A DNA stretch of 64,000 nt, from the NCBI GenBank assembly GCA_050953065.1, contig JBMNLZ010000003.1, positions 384,001 through 448,000 of the forward strand, in the 5' to 3' direction. Below the pieces are notes generated by a model that was given only the letters and a program-made list of their open reading frames with translations, was not told the DNA's origin and did not search any database. Positions 2,363-37,919 of the stretch are shown here, piece by piece. Within the stretch, counting starts at the first letter, position 1, and every line of letters starts with the position of its first letter. Source of the stretch: Bacilli bacterium (lineage in GTDB: Bacteria; Bacillota_I; Bacilli_A; ML615J-28; CAG-698). The position numbers and the translations under genes are program-made.

Positions 2363-2377
2363 TTAATTTTCCTCTTT

Positions 2378-3940: not shown

Positions 3941-3947
3941 AACTCAC

Positions 3948-5787: not shown

Positions 5788-5852
5788 AGTTTTCCCTCGT
5801 TTTAAAAAACTAAACTATTAATATTATACCATAGAACCTAACTATAAACAAT

Positions 5853-5881
5853 AAAAAAACTGTGTCTTGCGACACAGTTTT
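5853..5881 (-). terminator. Intrinsic terminator after the binding-protein gene
   Basis: Inverted repeat AAAACTGTGTC-ttgc-GACACAGTTTT with a U-tract on the minus strand. Confidence 0.85.
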
Positions 5882-5891
5882 CATTATTATA

Positions 5892-7541: not shown

Positions 7542-7603
7542 TTTTCCTCCTCATTTTTCGTCTTTTTTTTTAAGAATTTCCTTAAGATAAGGTTTACATC
7601 AAT

Positions 7604-7632
7604 ATTATATAACAAATCAAAGATATTTGCAA
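7604..7632 (-). promoter_or_regulatory. Sigma-A promoter of the binding-protein gene
   Basis: TTGCAA-17 nt-TATAAT on the minus strand; GGAGG RBS downstream. Confidence 0.75.
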
Positions 7633-7635
7633 TAT

Positions 7636-8562: not shown

Positions 8563-8563
8563 A

Positions 8564-9286
8564 TTATAAAAGACTAGCTGCGTCTTTATCAACTATAACA
8601 ATTACATCTTTATGATTCTTTAAAACTGATGCAGGGAAAGCCTCAGTAATCTCACCCTTTACTAAAGACTTAATTGCTTCTGCTTTTGATTTTCCAGATG
8701 CAATAAGTAAGATTTTTTTAGCCTGCATTATGTTTTTAATTCCCATAGTAATTGCACTAGTTGGAACTTCATCAATACTATTAAAGAATCTCTTATTATC
8801 TTCACGAGTTTTTTCTGCTAAAGTAACGATAAATGTTTCTTGGCTAAATGGAGTCCCTGGTTCATTAAAACCAATATGTCCATTTCCACCAATTCCTAGG
8901 ATTTGTAAGTCAATACTAGCTTTAGCTAACAACTTATTATAATCATCACAAAGTTTATTTAAATCTTTACCATTTCCTTCTGGAATATGAATATTTTCTT
9001 CTTTTATATCAATATGATTAAATAAATTTTCATGCATAAAAGTATAATAACTTTGAGAATGATTTTTATCTAAATTACAATATTCATCTAAATTATACGT
9101 TTTAACATCTTTAAAAGAAATCTCACCTTTTTTATATGACTCAATTAAATTTTTATAAAGGCCAATTGGTGAAGACCCAGTTGCTAACCCTAATGTACAA
9201 CTAGGTTTTGTTTTAATTAATTCAATTAAAATTTTTGCTGCTACTTGACTTAATTCTTGATAATCTTTAACTTCAACTATTTTCAT
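8564..9286 (-). CDS. nagB: Glucosamine-6-phosphate deaminase
   Basis: LGLATGSSP, NLDEY, GIGGNGHIGFNEPG, AITMGI motifs. Confidence 0.97.
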   Translation of the reverse strand: MKIVEVKDYQELSQVAAKILIELIKTKPSCTLGLATGSSPIGLYKNLIESYKKGEISFKDVKTYNLDEYCNLDKNHSQSYYTFMHENLFNHIDIKEENIHIPEGNGKDLNKLCDDYNKLLAKASIDLQILGIGGNGHIGFNEPGTPFSQETFIVTLAEKTREDNKRFFNSIDEVPTSAITMGIKNIMQAKKILLIASGKSKAEAIKSLVKGEITEAFPASVLKNHKDVIVIVDKDAASLL

Positions 9287-10848: not shown

Positions 10849-11871
10849 TTAACCAACAATACCTGTTCTTTCAATGCTCTCAACAAATAATTTTTGAACA
10901 AAGAAATAAGCTATTAGTAATGGTAACATCATTAACAATGCCATGGTATTACTTAAAAGTCCTAAGAATTGCGAACTTCTGATTATATCAACATCTATTC
11001 CAAGTCTATTCCAATAAGCCATATTACCACCGATAACTGTACTTGTGTTTTCAGCTAAACCAAATAATTTAGTACCTAAAACTGTAGTATATCTAAATAC
11101 TTGGGCGAAATAATAATCATTCCATTGCCAAACAAAAGCAAACAATCCAACAGTAACAATCGCACCACGAGCGTTTGGAAGCATTACACTCCAGAAAGTT
11201 CTAATAACACCCGCACCATCTATTTGAGCAGACTCTTCTAATTCAATAGGGACTCCCCTAAAGAATTGCCTAAAGATATATATAAAGATAGCAGACCTTA
11301 TCCCCATACCAAACGCTGACATGATATACATCGCAAACCATTTTCCAATGAGCATGATTCCAAAGAATCCATTATTAGAAAAATATAGCCTTCTTGCAAT
11401 ATTAAGTGTTTCATTTGGTACTACTAATGTAAATAACACGATAAAGAATATAATGTTATTTCCAGGAAATTTAAGTCTTGCAAATGAGTACCCTGCAACT
11501 GCCGTAGCAATTATTTGAATAAAAGTACTAATTGATGCTAACACTAAACTACCAAAGAATGAATCCACATAACTCATTAATTCCCAAGATAGTCTAATAT
11601 TTATTAAACTAAAAGTTTCAGGAATCCACATTACTCTTGGATTAGAAATATCTTGTGGTGCACGTAGTGCAAAACTAAATTTCTGGATTAGAGGTAATAT
11701 AATAATAAAACACAAACCAGTCAACAATAACATTCTTAACAAAATTGCGAAGAACATCAAAACCTTTTGGTTTCTAAGTCTTGCAGTGCTTGGATCTCTC
11801 CAAGCTGCAGCGAAATCACTTAACTTTTCTTTAAAAGTTTTCTTCATTACTTTATTCTCATTATTCGTCAT
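10849..11871 (-). CDS. CUT1 sugar ABC permease (MalG-like)
   Basis: AGYSFARLKFPG; EAA loop ELEESAQIDGAG; FVWQWNDY; ATG at 11871 overlaps the upstream gene end. Confidence 0.92.
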   Translation of the reverse strand: MTNNENKVMKKTFKEKLSDFAAAWRDPSTARLRNQKVLMFFAILLRMLLLTGLCFIIILPLIQKFSFALRAPQDISNPRVMWIPETFSLINIRLSWELMSYVDSFFGSLVLASISTFIQIIATAVAGYSFARLKFPGNNIIFFIVLFTLVVPNETLNIARRLYFSNNGFFGIMLIGKWFAMYIMSAFGMGIRSAIFIYIFRQFFRGVPIELEESAQIDGAGVIRTFWSVMLPNARGAIVTVGLFAFVWQWNDYYFAQVFRYTTVLGTKLFGLAENTSTVIGGNMAYWNRLGIDVDIIRSSQFLGLLSNTMALLMMLPLLIAYFFVQKLFVESIERTGIVG

Positions 11872-12979
11872 AGTAGAACACCATCCTTGATAATAAGAAT
11901 AGAACAATAGCAATTATTAACAACGCTCCTAAGCAGAACAACCATGACATCGCTGCATTTATGCCATAATTGGATAGATACGTTTTAACTCCATCATCAA
12001 TAGGCGTACCTAAGAATGTTGAAACTCCATAATTACTATTAACGTTTCCTGCACTGATAAACTTCTTAAGTTCTCTTAAGACATCTGATCTTAAGAAGGC
12101 ATCAACTATCGTATAAACCCCTGCCGTAAGCATTAAAGGTGAAACCATTGGGAAAGTTATTTTCCAGAAAATTTCATACTGAGTTGCGCCTTCAATCTTT
12201 GCTGCCTCATACAAATGTTTAGGCACAGATTGAATACCAGATAGGAAGATTAATATTTGAACACCCGAATAAGAAATTATATCATAAATTCTTGATACTG
12301 CATCTCCTAAATAGCCAACAAAAGTAACTGGCAAGTTTGCACTTAACAAGAAATCTTGGAAACTAAACATTGATGCGAACAATTCTCTTGTTGTTGCATT
12401 AATTGAATCTTGCATAACTGTACTAGTTGAAAGTGCTGCCTCAATTGCTTGAGAGTTAAAGATAACCGGCATAAAGAAGATTGCTCTTACTAAAGCACGA
12501 CCTTTAAACTTTGTATTTAGAATAACTGCAATAATTAAACTAAAGATTAGAATAATTGGAACATCTATTAAAATACTAATAATTGAACTAGACAATGTTT
12601 GAGTATAACTTGGATGTTCTAAGAAAATATATTTATAATTTCCTAATCCTAAAAACTGAGTTTGAACCCCTTCACCAGCTGCTCCTTTTACATAACAAAA
12701 ACTATAATATAGAGTTTGTATAAAAGGAATAAAGAAGAAATATATAAATCCTATCATCAAAGGAATTATAAAGACAACTCCCCAAAGGGCTTTTCTTTTT
12801 CTATAAACAATTTTTGAAGCGATTTTCTTTGGAATATAACCCATAATTTCACTAAATTTAATCATAAACTTAGTTTGTCTGAATTTATACCAAACCTCAC
12901 TCAGCCAAGATCTGAACCTGCTAAATAGTCTACCGATTGGAGCAAACATTTTAGCAAAAATTGATTTAATTTTTCCCAT
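11861..12979 (-). CDS. CUT1 sugar ABC permease (MalF-like)
   Basis: FKGRALVRAIFFMPVI; EAA loop LYEAAKIEGAT; FWKITFPMVSP. Confidence 0.92.
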   Translation of the reverse strand: MGKIKSIFAKMFAPIGRLFSRFRSWLSEVWYKFRQTKFMIKFSEIMGYIPKKIASKIVYRKRKALWGVVFIIPLMIGFIYFFFIPFIQTLYYSFCYVKGAAGEGVQTQFLGLGNYKYIFLEHPSYTQTLSSSIISILIDVPIILIFSLIIAVILNTKFKGRALVRAIFFMPVIFNSQAIEAALSTSTVMQDSINATTRELFASMFSFQDFLLSANLPVTFVGYLGDAVSRIYDIISYSGVQILIFLSGIQSVPKHLYEAAKIEGATQYEIFWKITFPMVSPLMLTAGVYTIVDAFLRSDVLRELKKFISAGNVNSNYGVSTFLGTPIDDGVKTYLSNYGINAAMSWLFCLGALLIIAIVLFLLSRMVFYYDE

Positions 12980-12980
12980 A

Positions 12981-15900
12981 TTAATGACCTCCTGATAAGA
13001 CTAAATAGCTTTTCGCTTTTACTGTAATTCCGTTTATACTATCAACATAATCTGCTGTAAGCGATTTGTTAATTAATATTTCAACACCATTAGAATAAAC
13101 TACCTTAACAACATTTGTTCTTCCACCTACTAATTCATGACTTACTAATCTTCCACCATGAATTCCAACTGCATCTAAAGTTTCTTTAGTATTAACAACT
13201 TTAGCTTTCCAGTTAGCATAATAAGTTTGAGGATAATGATTGTATCTTGTATCATATAAAATCTTTGGATCTTCATATGAGAAAACAAATTGTAAATTAG
13301 AACCAGTTTCAAGTAGTTTCAATAATTCCATTTGCTCATCACCAGTAAGGTTATAAGCTGGTCCAGTGTAATCAAATAATCCACTTATTATTAATTGATA
13401 GAAAGGAATTGTATAGTCAATGATTGGATTTTGTGATGAATAAATAGGCACATCAACTGCATAGTCAACATATGATAATGCATATTCAAATGGCGCACTT
13501 AATTTAACCTTACCAATCTCTTCTTTAAACATTCCAAGAGCTTGTTTTTGATAAGCACAACCAACCTCAGCATATACTTCTGCTCCTCTTTGATAATCAC
13601 TAACTTTAACATTTCCTAAGTCAACTGCATATACACCTTCACTGTTTAACTTCTTAAATGAAGGAAGTAGTGTGTCAACTAGCGAAGTATAATATTTAGC
13701 AGAAACATAGTTTGTTCCTATATAAGTTCTCTTATCTTGAACTTTTGTTGCTAAGTTATAAGGATAATGCGTAGAATATGATGCACCAATACTCTTACCA
13801 GTATATTTCATATTACCAAAAGAATAATCATAACCTTTATTTGTAGTAACATTCATTTCTGGATAAAAATCAATATTGTTTTGATACAAGAAATCTTTGA
13901 ACTTATTTAAGCCCTTCACTCCTCCTAAAACTTTTGCAACTTTATGATTGCTACGAGCTTTAAATTCTAAAGCATCCTCACTCCAACCACGATAACTAAC
14001 ACTTAAATTATGAATATCATAATCCATTAATTCTTCTAATATTTCTTGTGCTTGTTTGAATGTAGTAAGAGATGATTTAATTTTATGTTTAACTCCTAAA
14101 GTTAAGATATATCTTTCATAAGCTCCTAAAAAGTTAACATCAACTAACGTATTAGCACTTGTATCATGTGCTTCAAGTAAATATTTATTAACTAAATAAA
14201 TTCTATATACTTCAGCTACTTTTGAATATGTTAATTGATTAGCCCTTAAGAATATAAAGTCATATTGAAAATCAATTGTATTTAAAGTTGTACTCCATTT
14301 ATTAAACTTAGAAGTATTCCATTTATTAGTACCAACTGCAACTTCTTCCATTTCTCTAAAATAAGTTTGGAATTTAGCATGGTTATATGGTTTACCACGT
14401 TGACTATCATGAAGTGTTCCTGCATCAAGAACAGAACTATTAGCACCATTTGCTACTATTCCAACAACACCCTTTTGATTAGTTGTATCAATGTAACCAT
14501 ACATTGGAAACATCAATTTTTCAGCGTTATCAGAATCAGGCATTTGATATGGAGCAATATTCATATCTCTACCATACATCCTCTTCCTAAAATCATTATA
14601 GTTTAATTCTTGAGCACCATTATTAAACTTAATAACAGCGCCAGACCCATCTGGTACAACTAACATACCTTCGCTTGTAGCCTCATCATTAAACGTAAAA
14701 TATGGTAAAAAGTCAATATATGATAAACGATAATTATGACTATAAGGATCATTATAATCAAGTGAACCATTACCTTCTTTTAATATATCACCTAAAAGCA
14801 TGAATTTAACGCCTTCATAATCTTTTGCTAAAGATACTTCCATACCAACTCTAAATCTAACAGGTACTAAGTCACCTTCAACACCAAAGTATTGGTTTTC
14901 ATGGTAAGCTTCTTCTATTGAATAATATGCTGGAATTGGCAAGCCATCTTCATCATAAATAAAGCCATCTTCATCTCGTGCTGCATATCCTGCATTTCTT
15001 CTCGCAAGATAATATTTAGGATCATCTTCTAGATTATCAAAATTCAAAGATTTAGCTGCTACAAGCTCATCAATTTTATCTTGGTCATCTAAAAGACTTG
15101 CATCATAAACATATTTTTCATTTACTAAATGTCTTTCAGATGTTTCATAAAGCAAATTAAATAAAGCTGTAAATTGTGTGCTAGATGTCGCTTTTAATTT
15201 ATAAAAACGATATTTATCAGGCTCTTCATCTTTGTTTACTTGATCATCTGTTTCGATTTTATAAAATCCATCAAATAATGAGTTTTTAGTTCCTTCATAA
15301 ATAAACGGGTTAACTATACAAGGAGAGGCTCCTTCTTCGCCATAATTAGTTGCATTAATTGTTGTTCCCCAGCCATTAACAAACTCTTCAGTTAAATAAG
15401 TTATATTAAAGTAAAGGTTTGTAGCATCTGGTTCAACTGTTTCTGGAAGCGGATTTACATCTCCATAGTTGTTATCATGAATATATTTTGCAACATCATA
15501 ATTTGATGTTGTAGCACTATAAGTGCCACTATTTTGATATTCTCTATATCTAACCACTCTAATAGACATAGTATCACCAAATGAATCCATAATACTTACA
15601 TTAGCATATTCTTGATTAATTCTAATATTCCCGATGAATTGATTAATCATTTTTTCAATTCTCATTTTATCTGGATAATAAGTTTGAGTAAAACGACCTA
15701 TATCATAAGAGATTTGAACCCCATCATCAATGTAATTAATAGCATAATGTTTTTCATATGTATTTGATGTTTTATTATAAAAGTTTACGCTATCAGTCAT
15801 AGTATTAAGACCAGTTGTAATTTGAGTTCCATTAGCACCATAATAGAACAATCTAAAATGGCTACCATAGGCTGAAGATACATCATCATTAGTTGTTGTA

Positions 15901-16187
15901 TATGTCTTACCTGTTCTTTTATCAACAATTGTAATTCTAGTAGTTTCTTCATTGATAAACATTTCAAAATTGTCATTTTCAGCAAACTTTTTATTATTAT
16001 CAAATGTTTCCATTGAAGATGCTTCAACAAAATCTTCTAGATTTATTTTTTTATTAGTAAAAGCTAATTCTTCTGCTAAAGCAATAGTACTAAGACCTCC
16101 AACAAAATAAACTAATAACGTAATCACTAAAACAATAACTAATAAAGAAGGAATAATATATTTAGCTTTTAAAAATCTCATAAACAT
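12981..16187 (-). CDS. Large membrane-anchored extracellular protein, DUF5696-like
   Basis: N-terminal TM; LPYF...GMLVVPDGSGAVIKFN, MYGRD, FPMYG, LTTFKQAQEIL, IPFYQLIISG, LKLLETG, VVYSNGVEILIN motifs; typical position after YIP1/NHL genes. Confidence 0.75.
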   Translation of the reverse strand: MFMRFLKAKYIIPSLLVIVLVITLLVYFVGGLSTIALAEELAFTNKKINLEDFVEASSMETFDNNKKFAENDNFEMFINEETTRITIVDKRTGKTYTTTNDDVSSAYGSHFRLFYYGANGTQITTGLNTMTDSVNFYNKTSNTYEKHYAINYIDDGVQISYDIGRFTQTYYPDKMRIEKMINQFIGNIRINQEYANVSIMDSFGDTMSIRVVRYREYQNSGTYSATTSNYDVAKYIHDNNYGDVNPLPETVEPDATNLYFNITYLTEEFVNGWGTTINATNYGEEGASPCIVNPFIYEGTKNSLFDGFYKIETDDQVNKDEEPDKYRFYKLKATSSTQFTALFNLLYETSERHLVNEKYVYDASLLDDQDKIDELVAAKSLNFDNLEDDPKYYLARRNAGYAARDEDGFIYDEDGLPIPAYYSIEEAYHENQYFGVEGDLVPVRFRVGMEVSLAKDYEGVKFMLLGDILKEGNGSLDYNDPYSHNYRLSYIDFLPYFTFNDEATSEGMLVVPDGSGAVIKFNNGAQELNYNDFRKRMYGRDMNIAPYQMPDSDNAEKLMFPMYGYIDTTNQKGVVGIVANGANSSVLDAGTLHDSQRGKPYNHAKFQTYFREMEEVAVGTNKWNTSKFNKWSTTLNTIDFQYDFIFLRANQLTYSKVAEVYRIYLVNKYLLEAHDTSANTLVDVNFLGAYERYILTLGVKHKIKSSLTTFKQAQEILEELMDYDIHNLSVSYRGWSEDALEFKARSNHKVAKVLGGVKGLNKFKDFLYQNNIDFYPEMNVTTNKGYDYSFGNMKYTGKSIGASYSTHYPYNLATKVQDKRTYIGTNYVSAKYYTSLVDTLLPSFKKLNSEGVYAVDLGNVKVSDYQRGAEVYAEVGCAYQKQALGMFKEEIGKVKLSAPFEYALSYVDYAVDVPIYSSQNPIIDYTIPFYQLIISGLFDYTGPAYNLTGDEQMELLKLLETGSNLQFVFSYEDPKILYDTRYNHYPQTYYANWKAKVVNTKETLDAVGIHGGRLVSHELVGGRTNVVKVVYSNGVEILINKSLTADYVDSINGITVKAKSYLVLSGGH

Positions 16188-16192
16188 CCCTC

Positions 16193-16882
16193 CTATAAAT
16201 ACCTCAGTGATATTTCACGATAAATGGTATATATGAAACCTATTATTGTTTGGAAAAGGTTGAAGCAAAGAAGTAGGATAAATGCAACTACCATCGCTGC
16301 AATTGCAGTAGCAACAATAGTAAGAATACATTTAAGTAAACCGTACTCATGAACTCCAATAATTCCAAAGAAAGCCATATATCCCATCATGAACACACCA
16401 AGACTATTTACTAAATGATATAAAGCCATCTCTTCTGCAACAAGCACATTGCTTAAAACCATTCCTATAATAGTAGTAAATATCATAGGATATAAGCAAT
16501 AACTTATCATTAAAAAGATATCTTTCATTTTTCCTTTACCATCAAACAAAGTCGCAACTGACCAGTTTGAAACAGTAAATAAAACAATCGGAGCAACAAC
16601 ATAAGCAATTTCTGCGAATGTGCTCAATTCATTAATATTTCTATCACTTACTAAGAATCCCAAAAATTGGAATTTTAGTATTTGAAGTAAAATAATCACA
16701 GCAATAAATGTTAAAGCTACTGACCATTTACCTCTATTTTCTCTTTTGAATTCATCAAAACCTTTAATTGGGTGAGCTAAAATATAACCAGGGAATTTAA
16801 CGAATTCTGCATAAAAATACTTTAATCTACTTTTTACTTTAGCACCAAAGCCAGTTTTATTATTTGTTTCAGTATTATTCAT
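16193..16882 (-). CDS. YIP1-family membrane protein
   Basis: HPIKGFDE, SNWSVATLFDGKG, YCLYP motifs; about 5 TM segments. Confidence 0.8.
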   Translation of the reverse strand: MNNTETNNKTGFGAKVKSRLKYFYAEFVKFPGYILAHPIKGFDEFKRENRGKWSVALTFIAVIILLQILKFQFLGFLVSDRNINELSTFAEIAYVVAPIVLFTVSNWSVATLFDGKGKMKDIFLMISYCLYPMIFTTIIGMVLSNVLVAEEMALYHLVNSLGVFMMGYMAFFGIIGVHEYGLLKCILTIVATAIAAMVVAFILLLCFNLFQTIIGFIYTIYREISLRYL

Positions 16883-18588
16883 TATTCATCACCTATTCCT
16901 GATTCTTCATAACCACCTCGTTTTACACGTTTGTATATACTCCATCCCACTAATCCTACGACTATAGCTAAGCCTATATACATTACAGTTGTAAAATATT
17001 CCTTGATTATCTCATCACGATATAATTTATAAGCACGTGAATATAAATCTTTATTATAACCAAGTTCGAAGTAATCTAATGCTTCAATGTATTCACCCTC
17101 ATACATTAAAGTCTTTCCAATACCAACATATGCATATTGATAGTTAGCATTTTTTTGAACAACTTTTCGCCATTCTCTTGCAGACTCAATATAGTCTCCA
17201 TCAACATAATACTTAACTGCTTTATTGATAATTGCTCCAATATCTGTTGGTTGGAAAACCATTAAAGCTTTTGAGTTTTTATCAATCAGTAAAACATTTT
17301 CACCTTGATAAACAAGTGCTACTGGATTATCAAGCTCATTAATTTGAGTTCCTTTTCCACCTGAAATATAAAGCAAGTTTCCTTCAGCATCATATGTAAA
17401 AAGTCTTCCGTTAGCTGAGTCTGCTACAGTATAAATTCCATAATCATTAACTGCAATTGCAGTTAAGTCAGGATGAGATGTTGCTTGAGTTGTTCTTAGG
17501 TATACTATATCTCCCTTAGGTACATTATAACCATTTCTCTTTAAAACATCACTTTCAGCTGGATTTAACTTCTTAATCATTGATCTATCGTTAGTTACAA
17601 GACCTTTTGTATTAGTAGTAGGACCAGCTGTTGTATAAATGAAGTTAGCGCTATCTATACAAAGAGAGTTAAAGATTTGGTTTAATACTTGCGTAGATTG
17701 AGAAAGTTGAGCCTCAGTTGCAAGATTTCTCCAGAATATTTCCCAAACACTTAAAGCAACTTTATTAACCCCAGTAAAACCATAAAATTCTCCAGTTGGA
17801 CTTAGTTTAATAATCCCTTCATTAATTCCTGAAGAAATTACATAAAGTCTTCCTGAACTATCTGCTACCATTTTGAAAGGTAAGAAAGCCTTTGTTTTAA
17901 AAGCATGCGCTTGTGGAGTTGAAATTACTCTAATAACTTTAAATGTATCACTATCTAAAACAATGACTTGTTGGTTATTAGTATCACAAATATAGATATA
18001 ATCTTCTCCTGTAGTTCTAACTACACCTCTAAAGACTCCATTTGGACCATTTAAAACAATACTAGCTCCAGTTGCTTGAAAATCTTCAAAGCTAACTAAA
18101 CCAACATTTGTTCCATCTACTTCTCTAATAATTAAAGGAGTTCTAATACCATTATTATTAGTATTAATCTTTAATGCTTCTTCATATGTAAACTTTGTTT
18201 TATCAAGTTCAAAGGCATCAATTACATAATCATCTTCTGGATTATCATCTACTCCCATTATTTTTAAAAGACTTAAATTCTTATCAAAAATAAACATCTT
18301 ATTAGAAATTGAGTCTACTAAATAAAGTTTTTCTTCATATCCTAATAATTCATGGAATTCATTTCTTAATTCTTTTTTAAACAAAAACAAATCAGCTGGT
18401 GATCTAAAGTCAGCATCTCTTAACCCTAAATCTCCAAACTTATAAACATTTGACACAGTAAGACCTTTATCAGAATAGATTGGTTTATTATCATGAGTAT
18501 AAATATATCCTGTTTCAGCCTTTACTATCGGCAAAGTACACATTAAAACCATTAAAATAAATACAATTAAAATTCTTCTTTTTATCAT
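16882..18588 (-). CDS. NHL/beta-propeller repeat protein with TPR-like segment and C-terminal TM
   Basis: Signal peptide; repeats LYLVDS, IYICDTNN, YTVADSANGRLFTYD; NANYQYAYVGIGK TPR-like segment; C-terminal anchor. Confidence 0.8.
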   Translation of the reverse strand: MIKRRILIVFILMVLMCTLPIVKAETGYIYTHDNKPIYSDKGLTVSNVYKFGDLGLRDADFRSPADLFLFKKELRNEFHELLGYEEKLYLVDSISNKMFIFDKNLSLLKIMGVDDNPEDDYVIDAFELDKTKFTYEEALKINTNNNGIRTPLIIREVDGTNVGLVSFEDFQATGASIVLNGPNGVFRGVVRTTGEDYIYICDTNNQQVIVLDSDTFKVIRVISTPQAHAFKTKAFLPFKMVADSSGRLYVISSGINEGIIKLSPTGEFYGFTGVNKVALSVWEIFWRNLATEAQLSQSTQVLNQIFNSLCIDSANFIYTTAGPTTNTKGLVTNDRSMIKKLNPAESDVLKRNGYNVPKGDIVYLRTTQATSHPDLTAIAVNDYGIYTVADSANGRLFTYDAEGNLLYISGGKGTQINELDNPVALVYQGENVLLIDKNSKALMVFQPTDIGAIINKAVKYYVDGDYIESAREWRKVVQKNANYQYAYVGIGKTLMYEGEYIEALDYFELGYNKDLYSRAYKLYRDEIIKEYFTTVMYIGLAIVVGLVGWSIYKRVKRGGYEESGIGDE

Positions 18589-18600
18589 TTCAATTCACCT

Positions 18601-20115
18601 CTACTTCATACCCGAATGAGCCATCGTTTCCATAATTTGACTCTGAGATATTATAAATATAGTAATTGGAACCGAAATCATAATCAAACTAACTGCCGCT
18701 AAAACCCCAACACGAGCAGGTCCTGCTGTTGAAATTTGAACCAGTGCATAACTTACCATTTTTAAGTCTTCACGATAAATAAATGTAGATCCATCAGCTG
18801 CCCATAATCTTTGGAATACCAAAATAATTAAAGTAAGCCAAGCAGGTTTTACTAAAGGCATAACAATAGAAAACCATATCTTAAATTCTCCAGCTCCATC
18901 AATCTTAGCTGACTCAATTAACGAAGTCGGCACTTGAGACATAAACTGTTTCATTAAGAATAGCCCTAACGGGAAGGATATCATCGGCAAGATCATAGCC
19001 CAATAAGTATCTATCAATCCAATATAGTTAAATACAATATAGTTAGGAATACTTGTTACTTCATGAGGGAACATCAATGAATAAACAATTAGTCCAAAGA
19101 TAATTGATCCACCAGGAACTTTATATTTTGCTAGTGCATAAGCACACATCGAAGCAAATATAACGTGTCCAATTGTACCCATAATAGTTATAAAAATTGT
19201 ATTAAAGAAATATCTTGAGAAAGGTACTAAAGAAGCACCTAAAACTCCACCTAAATCCTTAAAGTTTTCTAAACTAGGGTTTCTCGGGAAAAATCTTGGT
19301 GGGAATAAGAATAATTCATCAAGTGGTTTAAATGCATTTGAAATTGTTAGAATTAATGGTAACAAACTAAATGCTCCACATAATGCTAAGAATAAGAATA
19401 AGAAAAAATCTCCAGTCTTTGATCTATTAAGTCTTTTCTTTTTCTTAGATTTCATTTTTATTTTCAAAGCATTAATTTCAGCAAATGGTCTAGAATCTAC
19501 TACTCTATGTAGTTTAATTTTAGCTCCATCAACTTCTTCTAAGCCTTCTTCTTGCATCTTAGTTTTTAATTCTAAATAGAATTCATATTTTGCTAACTCT
19601 ATTAAAGGGATAACCCAACAAAGCAAAACACCTAAAGTTATGATTCCAAGTAAAATTAATGGTAAATAACTAAGATATAATTTAAACAATTCCTTTTTAT
19701 GTCCATGCATCATCCTTTTACTTTTTTGAATTGCTTTAGATGATCCTATCTTTGGTTCATCAAGCAAAATGTAAAAAGACATTGAATAACTTAAGGCTTT
19801 AACAATTCCAGGAATTATTAATAAAATTGTCCAAAAAATTTGATAAAGTGTCTTTTTAATATATAAAACTATTTTATCGTTAATATGATTAAATTCTGAA
19901 AATAGTTTCTTTAAAGATATTTCTTCACCCTTAGAGATACTAACTATAACACTTGAAAATCCCATTAATAATGGCCCGCCAATAATCAAGGCACCAAGTA
20001 GTGGAGGAATAATCCAAGCTGCTAAAATTATCAACCCACAGATAAAGCTAATTAACGCTGCTGTTTTAAAATTGGGTTTAATCTTACTTAATGCAAGACT
20101 TCTATATTTTTTCAT
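18601..20115 (-). CDS. DUF975-like membrane domain fused to a CUT1 ABC permease
   Basis: N-terminal ~190 aa with PGIVKALSYSMSFYILLDEP...AIQKSKRMMHGHKKELFKL (DUF975); C-terminal permease with SNAFKPLDELF and EAA loop LIESAKIDGAGE. Confidence 0.8.
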   Translation of the reverse strand: MKKYRSLALSKIKPNFKTAALISFICGLIILAAWIIPPLLGALIIGGPLLMGFSSVIVSISKGEEISLKKLFSEFNHINDKIVLYIKKTLYQIFWTILLIIPGIVKALSYSMSFYILLDEPKIGSSKAIQKSKRMMHGHKKELFKLYLSYLPLILLGIITLGVLLCWVIPLIELAKYEFYLELKTKMQEEGLEEVDGAKIKLHRVVDSRPFAEINALKIKMKSKKKKRLNRSKTGDFFLFLFLALCGAFSLLPLILTISNAFKPLDELFLFPPRFFPRNPSLENFKDLGGVLGASLVPFSRYFFNTIFITIMGTIGHVIFASMCAYALAKYKVPGGSIIFGLIVYSLMFPHEVTSIPNYIVFNYIGLIDTYWAMILPMISFPLGLFLMKQFMSQVPTSLIESAKIDGAGEFKIWFSIVMPLVKPAWLTLIILVFQRLWAADGSTFIYREDLKMVSYALVQISTAGPARVGVLAAVSLIMISVPITIFIISQSQIMETMAHSGMK

Positions 20116-20129
20116 CTTGTCCTCCTTTC

Positions 20130-21206
20130 CTATGTGCCGACCTTGCGGATAATCTTTTGAATTGCTTTATTAAGTAGTATCGCTGTTACGAATAATAGTG
20201 TTGCGATGGCTGAGGCATATCCCATTTCAAATCTAACACTACCATAATCGGTTAAGTGGTTGATGATTGTATGTCCTGAATATTCAATTGAAGGGAATCC
20301 TGCCAAAGCTGTTGAAATCGCACCAACACCAAGAGAAGCTGAAATTTGAATAACGGCACTAAATGTTAATTGTGGTTTCATATTAGGTAATGTAATAAAC
20401 CATAATTCTTGCCATCTATTTCTAACACCATCCACGGCAGCTGCTTCATATTGAGTTTTATCAACGCTCTTTAATCCCGCAATTAAAGCTAGGAAGTTAA
20501 CACCTAAACTCATCCATAATTGTACTACAATAATAATCGGCAAAATATATTTTGAGTTTTGAAGCCAAGTAATTGGTTCTGCAATAAATCCAAATTGGAT
20601 TAAGAATGAGTTCGCATAACCATAAATATCACTATTGAAAATCAAAGTCCAAATAAGAATCGCATTTCCTGCTAAAGAAGGAGCATAGAATGCTAAAGTA
20701 ATAAATGGTTTTATTTTTGGAGGTAATTCATTAATTAACCAAGCAAATACGAAACTCAGTAAATATCCAATCGGTCCAGTAACAACTGCAATAATCAAAG
20801 TGTTTTTAACTGCAGTTATAAAAATATCATCATCTAAAAACAAAGTTAAATAGTTTGAAAAGCCTACCCAACGTGGTGCTTCTAAAAGGTTAAAATAAGT
20901 AAAACTTAATCCAAAGCTCATTACAACTGGTAAAACTGTAAAAACAGTGAATAGTAGTACATAAGGAAACATCATTAGATATAGAGTTCTATTTAAATAT
21001 AGTTTTCTTCTAAAAGGTTTCTTTCTACTCCACAGATCAATTTTCTTTCCAGTGCGCTCTTTCCAAGCAATAAATCTTTTCCATAAATCTTTTAAAGTTT
21101 TCTTACCTTGAGAAGAATCATTAGACTTTGTTGATTCACTAATTTCTTCAAGATTATTGTTTTCTTCTTTAGAAACATTTAAATCTTTATCAATTACATT
21201 TTCCAT
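20130..21206 (-). CDS. CUT1 sugar ABC permease (MalF-like)
   Basis: SFTYFNLLEAP, QLWMSLG, YEAAAVDG, RFEMGYASAIA motifs. Confidence 0.92.
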   Translation of the reverse strand: MENVIDKDLNVSKEENNNLEEISESTKSNDSSQGKKTLKDLWKRFIAWKERTGKKIDLWSRKKPFRRKLYLNRTLYLMMFPYVLLFTVFTVLPVVMSFGLSFTYFNLLEAPRWVGFSNYLTLFLDDDIFITAVKNTLIIAVVTGPIGYLLSFVFAWLINELPPKIKPFITLAFYAPSLAGNAILIWTLIFNSDIYGYANSFLIQFGFIAEPITWLQNSKYILPIIIVVQLWMSLGVNFLALIAGLKSVDKTQYEAAAVDGVRNRWQELWFITLPNMKPQLTFSAVIQISASLGVGAISTALAGFPSIEYSGHTIINHLTDYGSVRFEMGYASAIATLLFVTAILLNKAIQKIIRKVGT

Positions 21207-21220
21207 TGATCTTCTCCTTT

Positions 21221-24200
21221 CTAATCAAGTCCAAACTCAGCGCGTTTTCTAGCAATCTCACTGTTTATAATTTGGATGTATTGTTCTAGTGTTTCGCGTG
21301 GTTCTTTATCTTTATTTACAACTTCACGGAAGGCATTTTCTAAGTTACGTCCTGTATAATATCCACCAGGAACTTCTGGTACACCAACAGTTTTTTTCCA
21401 TTGAGTAGTTAATACTTCAATTTCTTTTGCTGTCCATGCCATTCTTCTAAATGCTTTAATATTAGGAGTATTATGACGAGCTGCTGGCCCTAAAACTGAT
21501 TCCAATTCACGAGCATAAGCAAATTGTGTTTCTTCACTTGTCCACCATTTCATAAATTCCCAAGCAGCTTCTTTTTCTCTAGCTTGAGCCATCATTACAA
21601 CAGCAGTTCCACCTGCTGCACCTCTATGATCTAGAGTACCATCTTCTCTAATTGTTCCAGGAAGTAGGGCAAAGTCCCATTTACCTCTAATCTCTGGCGC
21701 AGAAACCATCAAAGTATTATACATTTCATAGTTAGCAATTCCAATTGGAGTTTCCCCAGTTCTAAAACGGTTAAAGAATGATGCTGCAAGAGGGAAACTA
21801 TATTCACTATAAAATCTTGACCAAGTATCAAAAGCATTCATTGCTGCAGGGCTATCAAAAGCTGATTCACGATTACCATTCTTATAGAATGTTCCATCTT
21901 GTTGATAAAGCATTGAAGCAAAGATTTGGTTAACTACAGAGTTAGCTAAAACTGTATTAAGTGGTAAATAAAATTGCAAGTTTTTAAGTTGTAATTCTGG
22001 AATAATTTCAATTACATCTTCCCAAGTCCAAGGATTTTCTAAAGTAGGACGTTTCCATTCATATTCATTGAAAATATCTGTTCTATAAAATGTTACTAAA
22101 AATGACTGAGTATTAGGTAAAGCATAATATGCACCGTTTAACTCATATGGAACCATGGCACTTGCTTGGAAGTTTCTATTTTCATCTTCTGGATCTACAT
22201 TTGCAGTACATGTTCCACGAGCAATTTCATCCGCTGAACAAATTCCAGTTGTTTCATAGAATCCCTCATATTTTGAAATATCTTCAATTGCATTACGAAG
22301 TGCATAGTTAATTGGAAGTCCATTTGGAACGTTGATTGCTACATCAGGCCCTCTTTTTGCAAGTGTTGCTGGAAGTAGTACACCAGGTGCTACTAATTTC
22401 AAGCTAACGTTTGCATGATCAAATGTATCTAAAATTAGATTACTCAAAGCATTTGCTTGTTCACGTCCAGCTGTCTCACTTGTTAAAAACCAAACTTGAA
22501 TTGTTGGTAAATTAGCTTTAGCTTCAGTTACACCAATACTTTCATAATCAAAGAAGAATGATTTGAAGAATGATTTAATACTAAACCAACTACCTGCAAA
22601 GAAATTAGGATTTGCTTTTGGCAAAGCATTTTTCCTGCTTAAACTTGATTTATCTGAATGAATAAATAATTGATCAACTACAATTGATTGTTCACTGATT
22701 TGTAAAATCCATGTTCCTAAAGCTGAAATGTTGTTACTATAATCTTTAAGACGTCTTTGAATCGTTCTAACGTTATTAACAAATGAATCAAGTTGTAGAG
22801 CCATTCTATCAAGACTTGCTGTCATATCGCTTTTCCCACCAGATAATTCAGCTAAGATTCTATTAACATCTCTTAACTCTTTTGCACATTTTGCAAATGT
22901 TTCTTTTAATCCAACAATGCTTTTGCCATCTTCATAATAAACAGAAACAAAATCAGCTAAGTTTTCTACTAAGTAATAATCAATATATGGGTCTGGGTTT
23001 AAAGTAGTAACTGCAATAATTCTACGATAAACTCTATTTAACTCATCAATTACTGTATTTACTCTACTAACTAAACTACTGTAATCTCCTAAAGTTGCTT
23101 CCATTGTAATAGTATTTTTACCAGCATTTAAGTGGAAATAATATGGAATTTCTTTTCCTGTCTCATCAAAGCCGCCCAAAGTCATGATTTTCCAATCTCT
23201 ACTAAACTTGTATTTAGTATTTAGTGCTTCATCAAAAGGTACCTCACCATTTATTAAAACTTTTCTTGTCGTATAAACACCTCTTGAAACTCCTTGTTTT
23301 GCTCTAAATGAAATTTGATATAATCCTTCTTTTTCTACATCTACTTTCCAAGAAATCCAATCGCCAGGTGAAGACCATTTAGTTCCACCAATTGCATTAT
23401 ATCTAATCCTTACAGGGTCACACGGAGAGTTCTTCGCACTCGTTCTATCATTTACTGCATAAAGTGTCGCAGATGAAGATGTTCTAATGTTTGGGTCTTC
23501 TGCTTCGTATAAAATCATCGTATCATCAACTTTATCAGCATCATCAAACTGACCTATATAATCACTATAAGACATATAATCAGTTTTAGCACAAATATCA
23601 ATTGCAAAAATACTCATTGGTTCTCTAATTGATTCAATTGTGATTGTATTTTCACCTTCAAGCAAATGAATTAAATAAGGTTCAGTAACATACCCTAAAT
23701 CATCTACAACATAGGCTCTAGTAATTTTTGGTTTTTCAATTTGAGTTGGTTTCATATCATTGCCCATGGCATCCATAAAGAACATTGATCCTTTAGATGC
23801 ATCAATTGGACCATCTCCCCAAGTTCTTGAAAACACAATATTTTTCAAAGCCTCATATGGAGTTACGCCATTGATTTTAATACTTCTTTCAATTGATGCA
23901 GAACCACCTTTCTCAGGATAATAACTAAGTCTAATATTATAATATCCTGCATCTGGTACTGTAAATTTCCAAGTTGCACTACCTACTTCTGAAGTATAAA
24001 AAGGCTTAACTCCATTTACGATTGTTGCAAGATTAGCAACATCTGTAAAATCAGAGTGTACTAAGTCAGTATTATTTGTTGTATCAATAGTAATATTATT
24101 ATTTGGAGTAATCATTTCATATGCTTTTAAATACTCCCCATATTCGCCAACTATTTCATAATCTCCAGGCACTGTTGCTTTTGTATAAACATGGCCCGAA

Positions 24201-24313
24201 GCATAACTTGTAATCACACTACTTAAAAATAATGCAACTAAAAGAACTAGTATAATTAGCAAGATACTGCGTTTAACTAATTTAGGTGTGATCAATCCCT
24301 TAAGTTTTTTCAT
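21221..24313 (-). CDS. Giant (1030 aa) solute-binding protein with N-terminal CBM-like jelly-rolls and a helical linker
   Basis: N-terminal anchor; two CBM6/35-like segments (WKFTVPDAGYYNI; WKVDVEKEGLYQI); C-terminal SBP motifs YALPNTQ, FYRTDIF, APEIRGKWDF, AWEFMKWW, PEVPGGYY. Confidence 0.85.
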   Translation of the reverse strand: MKKLKGLITPKLVKRSILLIILVLLVALFLSSVITSYASGHVYTKATVPGDYEIVGEYGEYLKAYEMITPNNNITIDTTNNTDLVHSDFTDVANLATIVNGVKPFYTSEVGSATWKFTVPDAGYYNIRLSYYPEKGGSASIERSIKINGVTPYEALKNIVFSRTWGDGPIDASKGSMFFMDAMGNDMKPTQIEKPKITRAYVVDDLGYVTEPYLIHLLEGENTITIESIREPMSIFAIDICAKTDYMSYSDYIGQFDDADKVDDTMILYEAEDPNIRTSSSATLYAVNDRTSAKNSPCDPVRIRYNAIGGTKWSSPGDWISWKVDVEKEGLYQISFRAKQGVSRGVYTTRKVLINGEVPFDEALNTKYKFSRDWKIMTLGGFDETGKEIPYYFHLNAGKNTITMEATLGDYSSLVSRVNTVIDELNRVYRRIIAVTTLNPDPYIDYYLVENLADFVSVYYEDGKSIVGLKETFAKCAKELRDVNRILAELSGGKSDMTASLDRMALQLDSFVNNVRTIQRRLKDYSNNISALGTWILQISEQSIVVDQLFIHSDKSSLSRKNALPKANPNFFAGSWFSIKSFFKSFFFDYESIGVTEAKANLPTIQVWFLTSETAGREQANALSNLILDTFDHANVSLKLVAPGVLLPATLAKRGPDVAINVPNGLPINYALRNAIEDISKYEGFYETTGICSADEIARGTCTANVDPEDENRNFQASAMVPYELNGAYYALPNTQSFLVTFYRTDIFNEYEWKRPTLENPWTWEDVIEIIPELQLKNLQFYLPLNTVLANSVVNQIFASMLYQQDGTFYKNGNRESAFDSPAAMNAFDTWSRFYSEYSFPLAASFFNRFRTGETPIGIANYEMYNTLMVSAPEIRGKWDFALLPGTIREDGTLDHRGAAGGTAVVMMAQAREKEAAWEFMKWWTSEETQFAYARELESVLGPAARHNTPNIKAFRRMAWTAKEIEVLTTQWKKTVGVPEVPGGYYTGRNLENAFREVVNKDKEPRETLEQYIQIINSEIARKRAEFGLD

Positions 24314-26160
24314 TTTTTTACCCCTTCTATGTATTTTAATCTTTCTTCTGAAAATACAATTAGTTTTTCAATATAATCTAACGTTTCATTTAACATGCTT
24401 TCTTTGTTTCTTTGAAGCCATAAAGTTTTTAAATCATTTTTAATTTTTAAAGCGTCTTTTAAGGCTTCTTTTAACAGTGTGATTCTTACAGTTTTTTCTA
24501 AAGAATCATTCCCACAAACATTAATTTTTAGTAATAAAGAAATCATCTCAATTGTCCAAACAACTTCATCTTTAATTAAAGAATCATTAAATTTGATAAG
24601 CTCAATTTCTTTTTTCTTATAGTTTAAATATTCTTCTGCACTTTGATATTTCTTATAACTCAAAGTATTATATTTCATCTTTTCTTTAACATATTCTATC
24701 CTATTTTCTTCTTTGAAAGAATAAGTTATCCAAAGCAACATATAAAATGTAGCAGTCCCATTACCAATATAAGCATTTTCAAAGCGATTGATTGTTCCTA
24801 AATCCATAATAGCATCTGCTATTAGGTTTTCTTTATCTTTGAAAATAAATCTATTTAAATATTGTTTAACTGATAGATAAACTCCTTCTTCACATCTGTA
24901 ACTCATTAAGCCAGCATAGACAAGTGGTGCAAAACTAAATGGTAACATCTGCATATGTCCGACATCTCCCCAATCAGTTAATAAGATTCCTTCACCACCG
25001 TTATCCTTAACAGCCCAACAAGCGTTCGCAATGTTCTCAATCCAATCACTTTGTCTTAGTGATAAACTACACCAAGAAGTAGTTCCAGGAGCTGCCATGA
25101 ATTTTACTTTGGCTTTTTTTAGCTTTTTAATATTTTTAGAGAAAGAATAAAAAGCATCATAGCCCCAATCAATAAAAATCATATCTTTTGGAAGCTTTTT
25201 AAATAACTCAGGATGATTATTTAAAACATCTCCCCAAATCAAAGGAATTTTTTTATATTTTTTTATCTCTTTATAAGCTTTTAATGTATAGTCTAAATAA
25301 ACCTTGCCAAGACCTACTTTCTCACATTCAGCCTTTGACTTACCTTTACCTAGTTCAAATGGTTCATCAAAGTTCATATTGAAGTATTTTGAATTAGAAT
25401 GAGGCAACATATCTTGATACATTTTCTTTAATAACTCTAAAGATTTTGGATCAAGTGGATTGAGTGTACTTGGCGCTCTATGAGTCCCCCATAAATGAAT
25501 TCCTTCAGGACACTCTGCCAAACTAGAAAACTCATCTTTTTTAAGCCAAGCGGCCATATGACCAAAACCATTTTGATTTGGAACTAAATCTATAAAATGT
25601 TTATTAGCATAGTCTTCAATTGCTTTATATTCTTCAACTGTAATATATGAATCCTTTTTTAAATAATCTTTAAAACTTTGATATTCAAAAGAAAAACCTT
25701 CAACATATAATTCTAAATGATTCATTTTTAAATCACTCATAATATCAATAATTTTAAAAACAGTTTCTATTTTAGGAACTTTATTTCGGCTTATGTCATA
25801 CATAAAGCCTCTTATTTTTAAATCTGGTTCATCATAGATTTCTAGACATTCTATTTGATTGTTTTTAATAATTTGTTTTAAAGTCTTAACTGCATAATAT
25901 GCACCTGGTGCATCTTTATGATAAATCGTAATAACATCTGGTTTAACTTCAATTTTATATGCTTCAGCACTTAATTTTTTGTCAATAAAAAAACGAACAT
26001 CGGCTTTTTTAGATTTACCTACTTGCAAATTTAAAAAAGAATCCAATTCTTTCTTAACTATTTCATTGGGCTTGTCAAAAAAAGCAATGCTCTTTTCTTT
26101 CATTTTGTAAACGTCGTTATTATATTTTATTTCTTTTACCTTAGGAAATATATTTACCAT
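24310..26160 (-). CDS. GH20-family beta-N-acetylhexosaminidase, no signal peptide
   Basis: IYDEPDLKIRGFMYDISR, VPNQNGFGH, catalytic NFDE, IWGD, DWGY, LLTDWGD motifs. Confidence 0.88.
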   Translation of the reverse strand: MVNIFPKVKEIKYNNDVYKMKEKSIAFFDKPNEIVKKELDSFLNLQVGKSKKADVRFFIDKKLSAEAYKIEVKPDVITIYHKDAPGAYYAVKTLKQIIKNNQIECLEIYDEPDLKIRGFMYDISRNKVPKIETVFKIIDIMSDLKMNHLELYVEGFSFEYQSFKDYLKKDSYITVEEYKAIEDYANKHFIDLVPNQNGFGHMAAWLKKDEFSSLAECPEGIHLWGTHRAPSTLNPLDPKSLELLKKMYQDMLPHSNSKYFNMNFDEPFELGKGKSKAECEKVGLGKVYLDYTLKAYKEIKKYKKIPLIWGDVLNNHPELFKKLPKDMIFIDWGYDAFYSFSKNIKKLKKAKVKFMAAPGTTSWCSLSLRQSDWIENIANACWAVKDNGGEGILLTDWGDVGHMQMLPFSFAPLVYAGLMSYRCEEGVYLSVKQYLNRFIFKDKENLIADAIMDLGTINRFENAYIGNGTATFYMLLWITYSFKEENRIEYVKEKMKYNTLSYKKYQSAEEYLNYKKKEIELIKFNDSLIKDEVVWTIEMISLLLKINVCGNDSLEKTVRITLLKEALKDALKIKNDLKTLWLQRNKESMLNETLDYIEKLIVFSEERLKYIEGVKK

Positions 26161-37911: not shown

Positions 37912-37919
37912 GATCTGTT

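Follow-up and report, generated by a model that had tools for sequence, protein, structure and literature searches.

What is taken up, and by how many transporters, through a block of eight tightly coupled genes that encodes four permeases, an outsized solute-binding protein (SBP), three accessory envelope proteins and no ATPase? This question is raised by positions 10849-24313 of a 64,000-nt stretch of DNA (the window hereafter) from a Bacilli bacterium of the lineage ML615J-28, CAG-698 (assembly GCA_050953065.1, contig JBMNLZ010000003.1, positions 384,001 to 448,000). Our preferred answer, held with moderate confidence, is that the block is a conserved Bacillota cassette for double ATP-binding cassette (ABC) import of glycans, which this organism has recruited to feeding on foreign cell walls.

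Eight minus-strand open reading frames (ORFs) span the region exactly. The ORF list and the Pfam assignments agree with the gene order, and with the lack of an ATPase, reported in the initial annotation: from 5' to 3', giant SBP, permease, permease, NHL-TPR, Yip1, DUF5696, permease, permease, with no ABC ATPase among the Pfam matches of the block's proteins. The giant binding protein (21221..24313, 1030 aa) carries SBP_bac_8/SBP_bac_1 at residues 653-935. It is followed by permease 1, MalF/UgpA-like (20130..21206, 358 aa; BPD_transp_1 2e-11, EAA loop at residue 254), and by permease 2, MalG/UgpE-like with DUF975 fused at its N-terminus (18601..20115, 504 aa; EAA loop at residue 401). The next three genes encode an NHL propeller-TPR protein (16882..18588, 568 aa; weak Pfam NHL and TPR matches), a Yip1-family polytopic membrane protein (16193..16882, 229 aa; Yip1 1.2e-10) and a membrane-anchored DUF5696 protein (12981..16187, 1068 aa; DUF5696 1.4e-119, residues 433-1061). 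The block ends with permease 3, MalF-like (11861..12979, 372 aa; BPD_transp_1, EAA loop at residue 258), and permease 4, MalG-like (10849..11913, 354 aa; BPD_transp_1 5.4e-9, EAA loop at residue 227). Intergenic gaps are 14, 14, 12, -1, 5, 1 and -53 nt in transcription order, the last becoming -11 nt if permease 4 begins at its likely start, the ATG of its 15th codon (11871). Every ORF of at least 100 aa between 1 and 50 kb of the window lies on this same strand. Membrane segments given for the eight proteins come from a simple hydropathy scan, which gives Yip1 and the permeases several helices each.

The cassette is not peculiar to this genome. A permease-1 profile scan over one genome per species yielded 595 confirmed relatives, of which the best 80 loci were analysed. 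Of these, 62 show the full eight-gene order, and another 5 show it with NHL and Yip1 as one gene. The remaining 13 comprise 10 loci truncated by contig ends, one with the NHL gene split over two ORFs and two that deviate (L063 and L111). Together with 17 loci that carry long-form DUF5696 genes, compared over 20 kb around that gene, this makes 97 loci. Among the 17, all 14 from the organism's own family and its sister family show a GH20 gene and then the whole cassette in order (NHL-TPR and Yip1 being fused in two), and the three from other families have a divergent seven-gene form. Such a recurrence, with the order shared by 62 of 80 loci (67 with the fused forms) and by all 14 loci of the own and sister families, goes far beyond chance, and it bears out the initial remark that the order recurs in Firmicutes glycan loci. 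DUF5696 itself was detected in 122 of 399 genomes of a phylum sample (79 above the Pfam cut-off; 2 genomes unscored), including 7 of 7 of the window's family and 7 of 7 of the sister family. In the best 30 loci of this sample, each 4.8 kb long, Yip1 precedes DUF5696 in 29, DUF5696 is found in 30, permease 3 comes next in 29 and permease 4 in 28, the misses being cut loci. Carriers of the cassette include Paenibacillus, Cohnella, Lederbergia, Neobacillus and Thermobacillus, as well as Lachnospiraceae, Oscillospiraceae, Defluviitaleaceae and metagenome-assembled genomes (MAGs) of Acholeplasmataceae. Some MAG contigs with complete or partial cassettes bear the labels Bacteroidales, Candidatus Udaeobacter or Treponema (L052, L082, L100 and L120). 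These labels may reflect transfer out of Bacillota or binning error; two Treponema-labelled loci cluster with Lachnospiraceae and Defluviitaleaceae in the tree described below. No published description of the cassette was found in the literature searched, including for Yip1 together with ABC transporters and glycoside hydrolases, nor any relevant paper on DUF5696, in line with the initial remark that the accessory subunits are uncharacterised. We regard the cassette as widely conserved and so far uncharacterised in Bacillota, of a known kind (ABC importer or Gram-positive glycan locus) with new accessory parts.

Does the cassette encode one importer or two? BPD_transp_1 and an EAA-type loop are present in all four permeases. 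Permeases 2 and 4 share 30% identity over 202 residues and permeases 1 and 3 are alike in the EAA loop region, so that the four resolve into two MalF/MalG-like pairs. Permease 1 is 42-76% identical to its counterparts in 17 loci. Permease 2 matches DUF975 (1.2e-20) and BPD_transp_1 in Pfam and UgpE/GlcU/MalG-like families in NCBIfam; its 504-aa form with DUF975 occurs only in the window and in its nearest relative L051, other homologues having about 283-383 aa. A free-standing DUF975 paralogue with 44% identity is found elsewhere in the genome, at C2:454834-455496. A second binding protein, of normal size and with no permease of its own, is encoded at 5892-7541 (Big_2 and SBP_bac_1, lipoprotein-like N-terminus). 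A normal-size SBP lies beside the cassette in at least 45 of the 97 loci, a lower bound because loci of the window's own order were covered only 5 kb downstream of DUF5696. In Paenibacillaceae and Acholeplasmataceae the gene for this extra SBP comes immediately before that of the giant SBP, and in several Clostridia it comes immediately after permease 4. Two complete permease pairs with EAA loops and a second SBP nearby make the proposal of one oversized importer, with one SBP serving four permeases, doubtful. We therefore abandoned the view of the block as a single importer with one SBP; it probably encodes two.

As for energy, the MsmX ATPase is shared among CUT1 importers (of MalEFGK2/MsmEFGK type) in Bacillota. 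The genome holds only three CUT1 permease pairs, two in the cassette and the third beside one MalK-type ATPase gene, and two OB_MalK ATPase genes. The orphan one (ABC_tran, OB_MalK and TOBE_2) stands between a regulator-like gene and PGK/TIM. Most likely, judging from this gene inventory, the orphan MsmX-type ATPase powers both permease pairs, which fits the initial expectation of an MsmX-type ATPase encoded elsewhere. Across the 97 loci no ATPase gene was found inside the cassette; the 13 ABC-ATPase-like ORFs found all lie outside it and are at most 32% identical to the genome's MsmX-like protein. In these respects the system resembles known CUT1 importers: a family-1 SBP, MalF- and MalG-like permeases with EAA loops, and no ATPase in the locus, with an orphan MalK/MsmX-type gene elsewhere. 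It differs from them in combining two permease pairs with three conserved accessory genes between the pairs, in the fusion of one permease to DUF975 and in an SBP that bears CBM-like modules and a coiled coil and is two to three times as large as usual.

This giant SBP has a single N-terminal transmembrane segment (residues 17-35) and matches SBP_bac_8 at 2.3e-18 in addition to SBP_bac_1. With a profile of 37 homologues, sugar SBPs of the PDB were matched only in the last ~400 positions (563-876; Lin1841 at 1e-28), and designed coiled coils at positions 434-497. The N-terminal half gave sub-threshold matches to Golvesin_C in 11 of 37 homologues and to CBM_35 in 8 of 37, and its consensus contains two similar units. 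We read the protein as a membrane anchor, two putative CBM35/Golvesin_C-like modules, a coiled-coil stalk and a C-terminal CUT1 SBP domain.

Of the accessory proteins, the NHL-TPR protein is firmly assigned as a six-bladed NHL beta-propeller plus a TPR pair: a profile of 36 homologues matched designed NHL propellers (E 4e-42), the PknD sensor (5e-26) and TPR proteins (3e-43) in the PDB. Hydrophobic segments at residues 6-24 (signal-like) and 533-551 (C-terminal helix) point to an exported propeller held by a C-terminal membrane helix. The NHL-TPR stop codon overlaps the Yip1 start by 1 nt, and the two proteins form one polypeptide in 12 ORFs of several lineages among the 97 loci. In a large protein collection the Yip1 profile had 984 matches (E<=1e-5) to longer proteins; among the best 120, every one carries Yip1 and 103 carry the NHL family. 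Given their fusion in many lineages, it is almost certain that the NHL-TPR and Yip1 proteins function as one unit. For a joint role of the remaining cassette parts, it is gene order that would speak. A precedent of a kind is YknWXYZ of Bacillus, in which a Yip1-family protein is reported to be an accessory subunit of an ABC transporter (PMC4887032). In the cassette, too, a Yip1-family membrane protein is encoded with an ABC transporter, in invariant linkage to permeases. However, YknYZ is a MacB-type exporter, whereas the partners here are importer permeases, and Yip1 is joined to an extracellular NHL propeller.

These observations bear on the alternative that two independent CUT1 importers merely lie side by side, NHL-Yip1 and DUF5696 being surface proteins for adhesion or trimming without any supercomplex. 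Each permease pair is complete on its own, the second SBP is adjacent in many loci, as counted above, and no fusion of DUF5696 or Yip1 to a permease was found among the homologues listed. Against this, 67 of 80 loci, which range from Paenibacillaceae through Lachnospiraceae to Mollicutes-like lineages, retain the interleaved order, gaps within the cassette are of a few nt or overlapping, and the second permease pair follows Yip1-DUF5696 in 29 of 30 loci. An order so rigid across such distances usually marks products that work together, and we consider the independent arrangement possible, though somewhat doubtful.

The third accessory component is the DUF5696 protein, for which a glycoside hydrolase (GH)-like barrel that may cleave glycans had been suggested. 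It has a single transmembrane segment (residues 11-29) and three domains, with a lineage-specific insertion of ~200 aa ahead of the Pfam domain, and belongs to a large family (6056 representatives at E<=0.001, 3839 at 1e-30). A 41-sequence profile matched PDB entries 8rzg/8rzk and 5opq at E 8e-8 over three collinear segments, and NagBb weakly; 5opq is a Zobellia 3,6-anhydro-D-galactosidase, and NagBb of Bifidobacterium bifidum (5wzn) is a GH129 alpha-N-acetylgalactosaminidase. With a 113-sequence profile the only PDB matches at E<=1 were five GH129 sequences, those of the Zobellia type at 9e-11 to 9.6e-11 and NagBb at 7.5e-5 to 8.7e-5. The similarity extends over both the N-terminal and the C-terminal sandwich and over the first half of the barrel. 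When DUF5696 clusters were excluded, Glyco_hydro_129 came first in the ESM Atlas at 0.88, followed by DUF6259 and Melibiase/GH31, a result to be taken as a lead only. The profile matches support DUF5696 as a distant relative of family GH129. It differs from GH129 in its N-terminal membrane anchor, in its fixed linkage to Yip1 and two permeases, and in having neither a Pfam GH129 match nor a conserved acid pair in mid-barrel. The Pfam GH129 model (PF11308) matched none of the 41 DUF5696 proteins at E<=1, nor did any other Pfam family of note at this threshold, except CBM_4_9 in 3 of 41.

The homology to a glycosidase family is thus supported by the profiles, and catalysis is not. The best-kept acidic residues among 188 members are D513 (175 D and 5 E), D541 (178 and 2) and D639 (157 and 4), and D924 (163 and 4) and E960 (172 E and 7 D) are also well kept. 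Between positions 756 and 913, the mid-barrel stretch between the conserved G755 and P914 where barrel strands 4-6 are expected, no acidic column exceeds 126 of 188 (D864), in a gappy part of the alignment; E777 is acidic in 116 and D856 in 97 of the 188. The alignments to GH129 structures stop before this region, and the catalytic residues of GH129 presumably lie in the barrel part beyond their end. With no acidic pair conserved in mid-barrel, any catalytic role would be putative. The initial annotation had DUF5696 possibly cleaving glycans in a machine analogous to SusCD; spelled out, this would make it an active extracellular glycosidase, here a new muramidase or glucosaminidase at the mouth of the transporter, with SusCD-like coupling. 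The remote but specific GH129 homology in three collinear segments would be in keeping with this, as would the predicted extracellular membrane-anchored location, the five well-conserved acidic residues, the lack of any GH25, GH73 or SLT match in the genome and, as a lead only, the GH129, Melibiase and GH31 clusters as nearest named ESM Atlas neighbours (0.86-0.88). Yet neither the mid-barrel columns nor the Pfam GH129 model speak for an active enzyme, DUF5696 is kept beside xylan, mannan and beta-glucan genes, which is more in keeping with a non-specific or non-catalytic role than with a bond-specific one, and eight secreted GHL10 proteins encoded elsewhere in the genome (see below) can make extracellular cuts. 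We find this proposal unlikely.

The carbohydrate genes found beside the cassette in other lineages are varied. In Paenibacillus rhizosphaerae these are a GH10 gene with CBM9 and CBM4_9 and a GH43 gene; GH26 adjoins the cassette in P. amylolyticus and Acetatifactor, and triple-CBM65 proteins do so in Lachnospiraceae. A histidine kinase and an AraC-type regulator (in Paenibacillus copies) and further SBPs are also found beside cassettes elsewhere. Because xylanase, mannanase and CBM65 genes adjoin it in other lineages, the cassette is, as judged from its neighbours, a general glycan-uptake module. The flanks in the window are of another sort. A quick tree of permeases 1 and 2 (98 rows, midpoint root) places loci with cell-wall flanks in three clades, of 13 rows in the own family, 4 in Acholeplasmataceae and 11 in the sister family; rows labelled as cell-wall-type are 12 of 13 (the 13th being a cut contig), 3 of 4 and 11 of 11, respectively. 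Sixty-five of the rows outside these clades group in a single clade with support 86. One locus of a distant group, L049, is also labelled cell-wall-type, on a weak 27% GH3 match. From this tree, the closest relatives of the window's cassette stand in cell-wall-type loci. The initial annotation would have been refuted by closest homologues standing consistently in non-peptidoglycan loci; this is not what is seen, the nearest copies lying in peptidoglycan-type loci and those of other lineages beside xylanase, mannanase and CBM65 genes.

The peptidoglycan context noted at the outset was recovered with Pfam, as genes for MurQ, AnmK, two GH3, NamZ, NagB, GH20, GHL10 and PIG-L on one strand. Upstream of the cassette, in transcription order and on the minus strand like all genes named here, lie a fusion of a LysA-like diaminopimelate (DAP) decarboxylase and an M19 dipeptidase (31869-34058, 729 aa; Pfam Orn/DAP/Arg decarboxylase and M19), a beta-lactamase-fold protein of PBP4B/AmpH (AmiE/PBP4B) type (30812-31915; NCBIfam PBP4B 2.3e-49), a GNAT protein (29799-30782), a PIG-L deacetylase (29103-29795), a Cwp19-like GHL10 protein (27797-29101) that matches the Cwp19 structure 5oq2 at E 4e-66 over residues 27-427, a DUF6273 lipoprotein (26345-27721) and a GH20 beta-N-acetylhexosaminidase-like protein (24310..26160, 616 aa; Glyco_hydro_20 7e-17 and Glyco_hydro_20b, no export signal). 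Downstream follow GH3 (9273-10781), NagB (8564-9286), GNAT (7636-8592), the second SBP, DUF624 (5068-5787; four transmembrane segments), NamZ (3948-5087; 4e-83), a second GH3 (2378-3940), AnmK (1211-2362; 1.5e-95) and a MurQ-like SIS protein (334-1245), all from Pfam. In this downstream block (334..10781) hydrophobic N-termini occur only in the second SBP and DUF624, and none was seen by hydropathy in the glycosidases, the window's GHL10, the PBP4B-like protein, PIG-L or LysA-M19. As these enzymes have no export signals, it is oligomers that would be expected to enter the cell. The LysA-M19 fusion probably serves to exploit the stem peptide with its diaminopimelate; L053, L056 and L058 have it upstream of the cassette as well. 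A cytoplasmic lytic transglycosylase would turn N-acetylmuramic acid (MurNAc) residues into 1,6-anhydro-MurNAc, the substrate of AnmK. Cwp19 of Clostridioides difficile is a lytic transglycosylase (PMC6016235). The GHL10 protein of the window aligns to its catalytic domain; unlike Cwp19 it has neither signal nor wall-binding repeats, and would act inside the cell.

Would another N-acetylhexosamine (HexNAc) glycan, such as chitin oligomers, teichoic-acid-linked or capsular HexNAc or host glycans, be the substrate, with the MurNAc genes using a separate route? The probable-operon genes GH20, GH3, NagB and GNAT are not specific for MurNAc, and the best PDB matches of the second SBP include a chitin-oligosaccharide binding protein, at E 1e-4 only. 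In sister-family loci L041-L046, DUF624 lies downstream of permease 4 and is followed by a protein of ~650-690 aa, with a NAGPA phosphodiester-glycosidase domain in L041. The GDPD and Metallophos genes upstream in the window hint at teichoic acid. On the other side, two of the genome's three CUT1 permease pairs are in the cassette, which leaves no other obvious ABC route for muropeptides in view; NamZ, AnmK, MurQ, Cwp19-like GHL10, PBP4B-like and LysA-M19 proteins, all cytoplasmic by prediction, are encoded on one strand within 34 kb; and in three Acholeplasmataceae loci the genes right after the cassette are NamZ and GH3. A substrate other than wall fragments seems improbable to us.

Further genes of the window touch on the same subject. 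The lipoprotein-like products of the window are the second SBP, the DUF6273 protein, an Amidase_2 protein and two giant Big_2 proteins. The Amidase_2 protein (48103-50109, 668 aa; aBig_2 and an N-acetylmuramoyl-L-alanine amidase domain), which adjoins DUF2207 and LemA genes (45963-47945), is a candidate for an amidase that removes stem peptides outside the cell. The Big_2 proteins (1130 and 1334 aa) flank a GDPD glycerophosphodiesterase at 34456-42734, the 1130-aa one carrying a purple-acid/calcineurin phosphoesterase domain, and these genes may be teichoic-acid degrading partners of the peptidoglycan genes. Beyond the window start, after MurQ, lies the gene for an alpha/beta hydrolase of 245 aa (Hydrolase_4/Abhydrolase_1; C3:383596-384333, L132:5596-6333), which might act as an esterase on O-acetylated wall sugars. 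In the sister family, a second GHL10 paralogue of larger size lies upstream (about 740-830 aa in L056-L059). NCBIfam gave no match for the giant SBP, Yip1, DUF5696, DUF6273, GHL10 or the second SBP, and the PDB none for DUF6273. No regulator domain turned up in the window's proteins scanned between 1 and 34 kb.

The rest of the genome (1.55 Mb, 93.9% complete) suggests to which end walls would be dismantled. Transpeptidase, FtsW/RodA, MurB_C and Transgly had no Pfam match in it, and Mur_ligase_M a single one of 428 aa; none of the four was found in its one congener either, at 86% completeness. The controls of this search were positive in 10-12 of 14 reference genomes. Penicillin-binding proteins (PBPs) occur in 11 of 24 genomes of the own family and in 16 of 16 of the sister family, a distribution that fits the repeated wall losses in RFN20, RF39 and ML615J-28 described in PMC10868615. 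GHL10 has eleven matches in ten ORFs: C2:388627-390591, C2:581244-583340, C2:478341-482156, C2:484720-486744, C3:4045-6876, C3:17835-25481, C3:160330-162627, C3:8485-17772, C3:157862-160318 and 27797-29101 of the window. Eight of them have signal-like N-termini and two are giants of 2548 and 3095 aa. This set looks like an arsenal against the walls of other bacteria, and its eight predicted secreted members are better candidates than DUF5696 for extracellular peptidoglycan cleavage.

The lack of detected peptidoglycan-synthesis genes is what argues for feeding and not for recycling. MurQ, the NagZ-type GH3, NamZ and the AmiE/PBP4B-like protein are enzymes of the MurQ pathway, whose operon in Bacillus subtilis is murQ-murR-murP-amiE-nagZ-namZ, and a locus that recycles the organism's own wall in this manner would fit the PBPs of its own- and sister-family relatives. 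NagZ and NamZ are secreted in B. subtilis, unlike the enzymes of the locus, which have no export signals. The window further differs in that uptake would be by ABC transport (no MurP phosphotransferase system gene was seen in the window, where no search directed at such systems was made), in the host without detected wall-synthesis genes, and in the addition of AnmK, cytoplasmic Cwp19-like GHL10, GH20, PIG-L and LysA-M19. NamZ is the subject of PMC8054146. With the synthesis families unmatched in both the genome and its congener, and with many secreted GHL10 giants pointing outward, recycling of the own wall is highly improbable and was rejected for this organism. The literature searched contains nothing on wall catabolism (NamZ/MurQ) in Mollicutes-related lineages.

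Is the cassette expressed together with its wall-degrading neighbours? The GH20 stop overlaps the giant SBP start by 4 nt. A consensus scan found a terminator-like hairpin of 13 pairs (26353-26324) and a promoter-like site (26228-26200, TTGAAT-17-TATAAT) upstream of GH20, which is probably the first gene of the transcription unit, so that the cassette would be co-transcribed with a cytoplasmic GH20. Contigs from four metatranscriptome libraries of four studies map on the cassette genes (170-401 nt, mostly at least 99% identity) and cover permeases 4, 3, 2 and 1, DUF5696, NHL, giant SBP and GH20. One contig alone crosses a gene junction, that of Yip1/DUF5696 (16092-16394). We take them as a weak sign of expression, DNA carry-over being possible. 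As proof of an operon transcript these contigs were rejected, being short and bridging one junction, and no meaning is to be read into the parts of the cassette that they leave uncovered. DNA of the stretch occurs in runs from anaerobic digesters, bioreactors and sludge that belong to several studies; three of these may be its source.

Several points weigh against a cassette recruited to feeding on walls. The strictly peptidoglycan-specific genes lie outside the eight-gene cassette; GH20, GH3, NagB and PIG-L would suit chitin or another HexNAc glycan just as well, and in the PDB the SBP domains of both binding proteins match only general sugar SBPs. To our knowledge, GHL10 activity is established for one enzyme only. 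The missing wall synthesis comes from Pfam searches of an incomplete genome, and the same locus could serve recycling in PBP-bearing relatives such as the 11 of 24 genomes of the own family. As to a common function of the eight genes, neither DUF5696 nor a permease domain was found in the best 120 of the 984 longer Yip1 proteins and, NHL-Yip1 apart, no fusion joins cassette parts among the homologues listed. The promoter-like and terminator-like sites are matches to patterns that occur at least as often in shuffles of the region, and the RNA-library contigs, which may derive from contaminating DNA, cannot show levels or single transcripts.

With these points considered, we still favour the double importer recruited to feeding on foreign walls. 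The cassette would encode two CUT1-type translocators without ATPases, one made of permeases 1+2 and the other of permeases 3+4, and alongside them three accessory envelope proteins: NHL-TPR and Yip1 acting as one unit, plus the membrane-anchored GH129-like DUF5696. It is embedded in a 34-kb, one-strand block of peptidoglycan-dismantling genes. Outside the cell, secreted GHL10 lytic transglycosylases and the lipoprotein amidase would cut foreign sacculi. Soluble glycan or muropeptide fragments would then be captured by the giant binding protein and the second SBP and imported as oligomers by both translocators. In the cytoplasm, GHL10, GH20, GH3, NamZ, the AmiE/PBP4B-like protein, AnmK, MurQ, NagB and LysA-M19 would convert them into central metabolites and amino acids.

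A bolder version, tentative and in our opinion rather doubtful, holds that the eight proteins form one envelope machine, SusCD-like in logic, in wall-less feeders on their neighbours' walls in digesters and guts, in which a cytoplasmic lytic transglycosylase and AnmK would replace a MurNAc kinase. The giant SBP would reel in the polymer, and the NHL-Yip1 unit and DUF5696 would dock on both translocators and hand over, perhaps cut, chains too large for ordinary importers. The analogy to SusCD drawn initially holds as a likeness of logic and not as homology. As in SusCD systems and Gram-positive polysaccharide utilisation loci, CBM-like glycan capture, degradative enzymes and a transporter are encoded together, and varied carbohydrate-active enzymes adjoin the cassette elsewhere. 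Unlike SusCD, there is no outer membrane in this monoderm lineage, and neither a TonB-dependent transporter nor SusD is among the Pfam assignments of window genes in 1-50 kb; unlike Gram-positive loci of this type, the proteins scanned in 1-34 kb include no regulator.

Few glycan-uptake arrangements in Bacillota are as rigidly conserved as this cassette, which extends from soil Paenibacillus to gut Lachnospiraceae and is unnamed in the literature searched. Should its accessory proteins prove to be genuine subunits of the transporter, they would widen the textbook view of ABC importers and could account for the uptake of large oligosaccharides by Gram-positive bacteria. The peptidoglycan version also has an ecological side: reduced-genome relatives of Mollicutes without detectable wall synthesis appear equipped to live on bacterial walls, with a transporter, a full cytoplasmic dismantling line and an array of giant secreted GHL10 proteins. 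Digesters treat sludge made largely of bacterial cells, as stated in PMC7511781, and cell walls are a major substrate there. The locus also bears on the suggestion, made in PMC10868615, that such lineages scavenge muropeptides.

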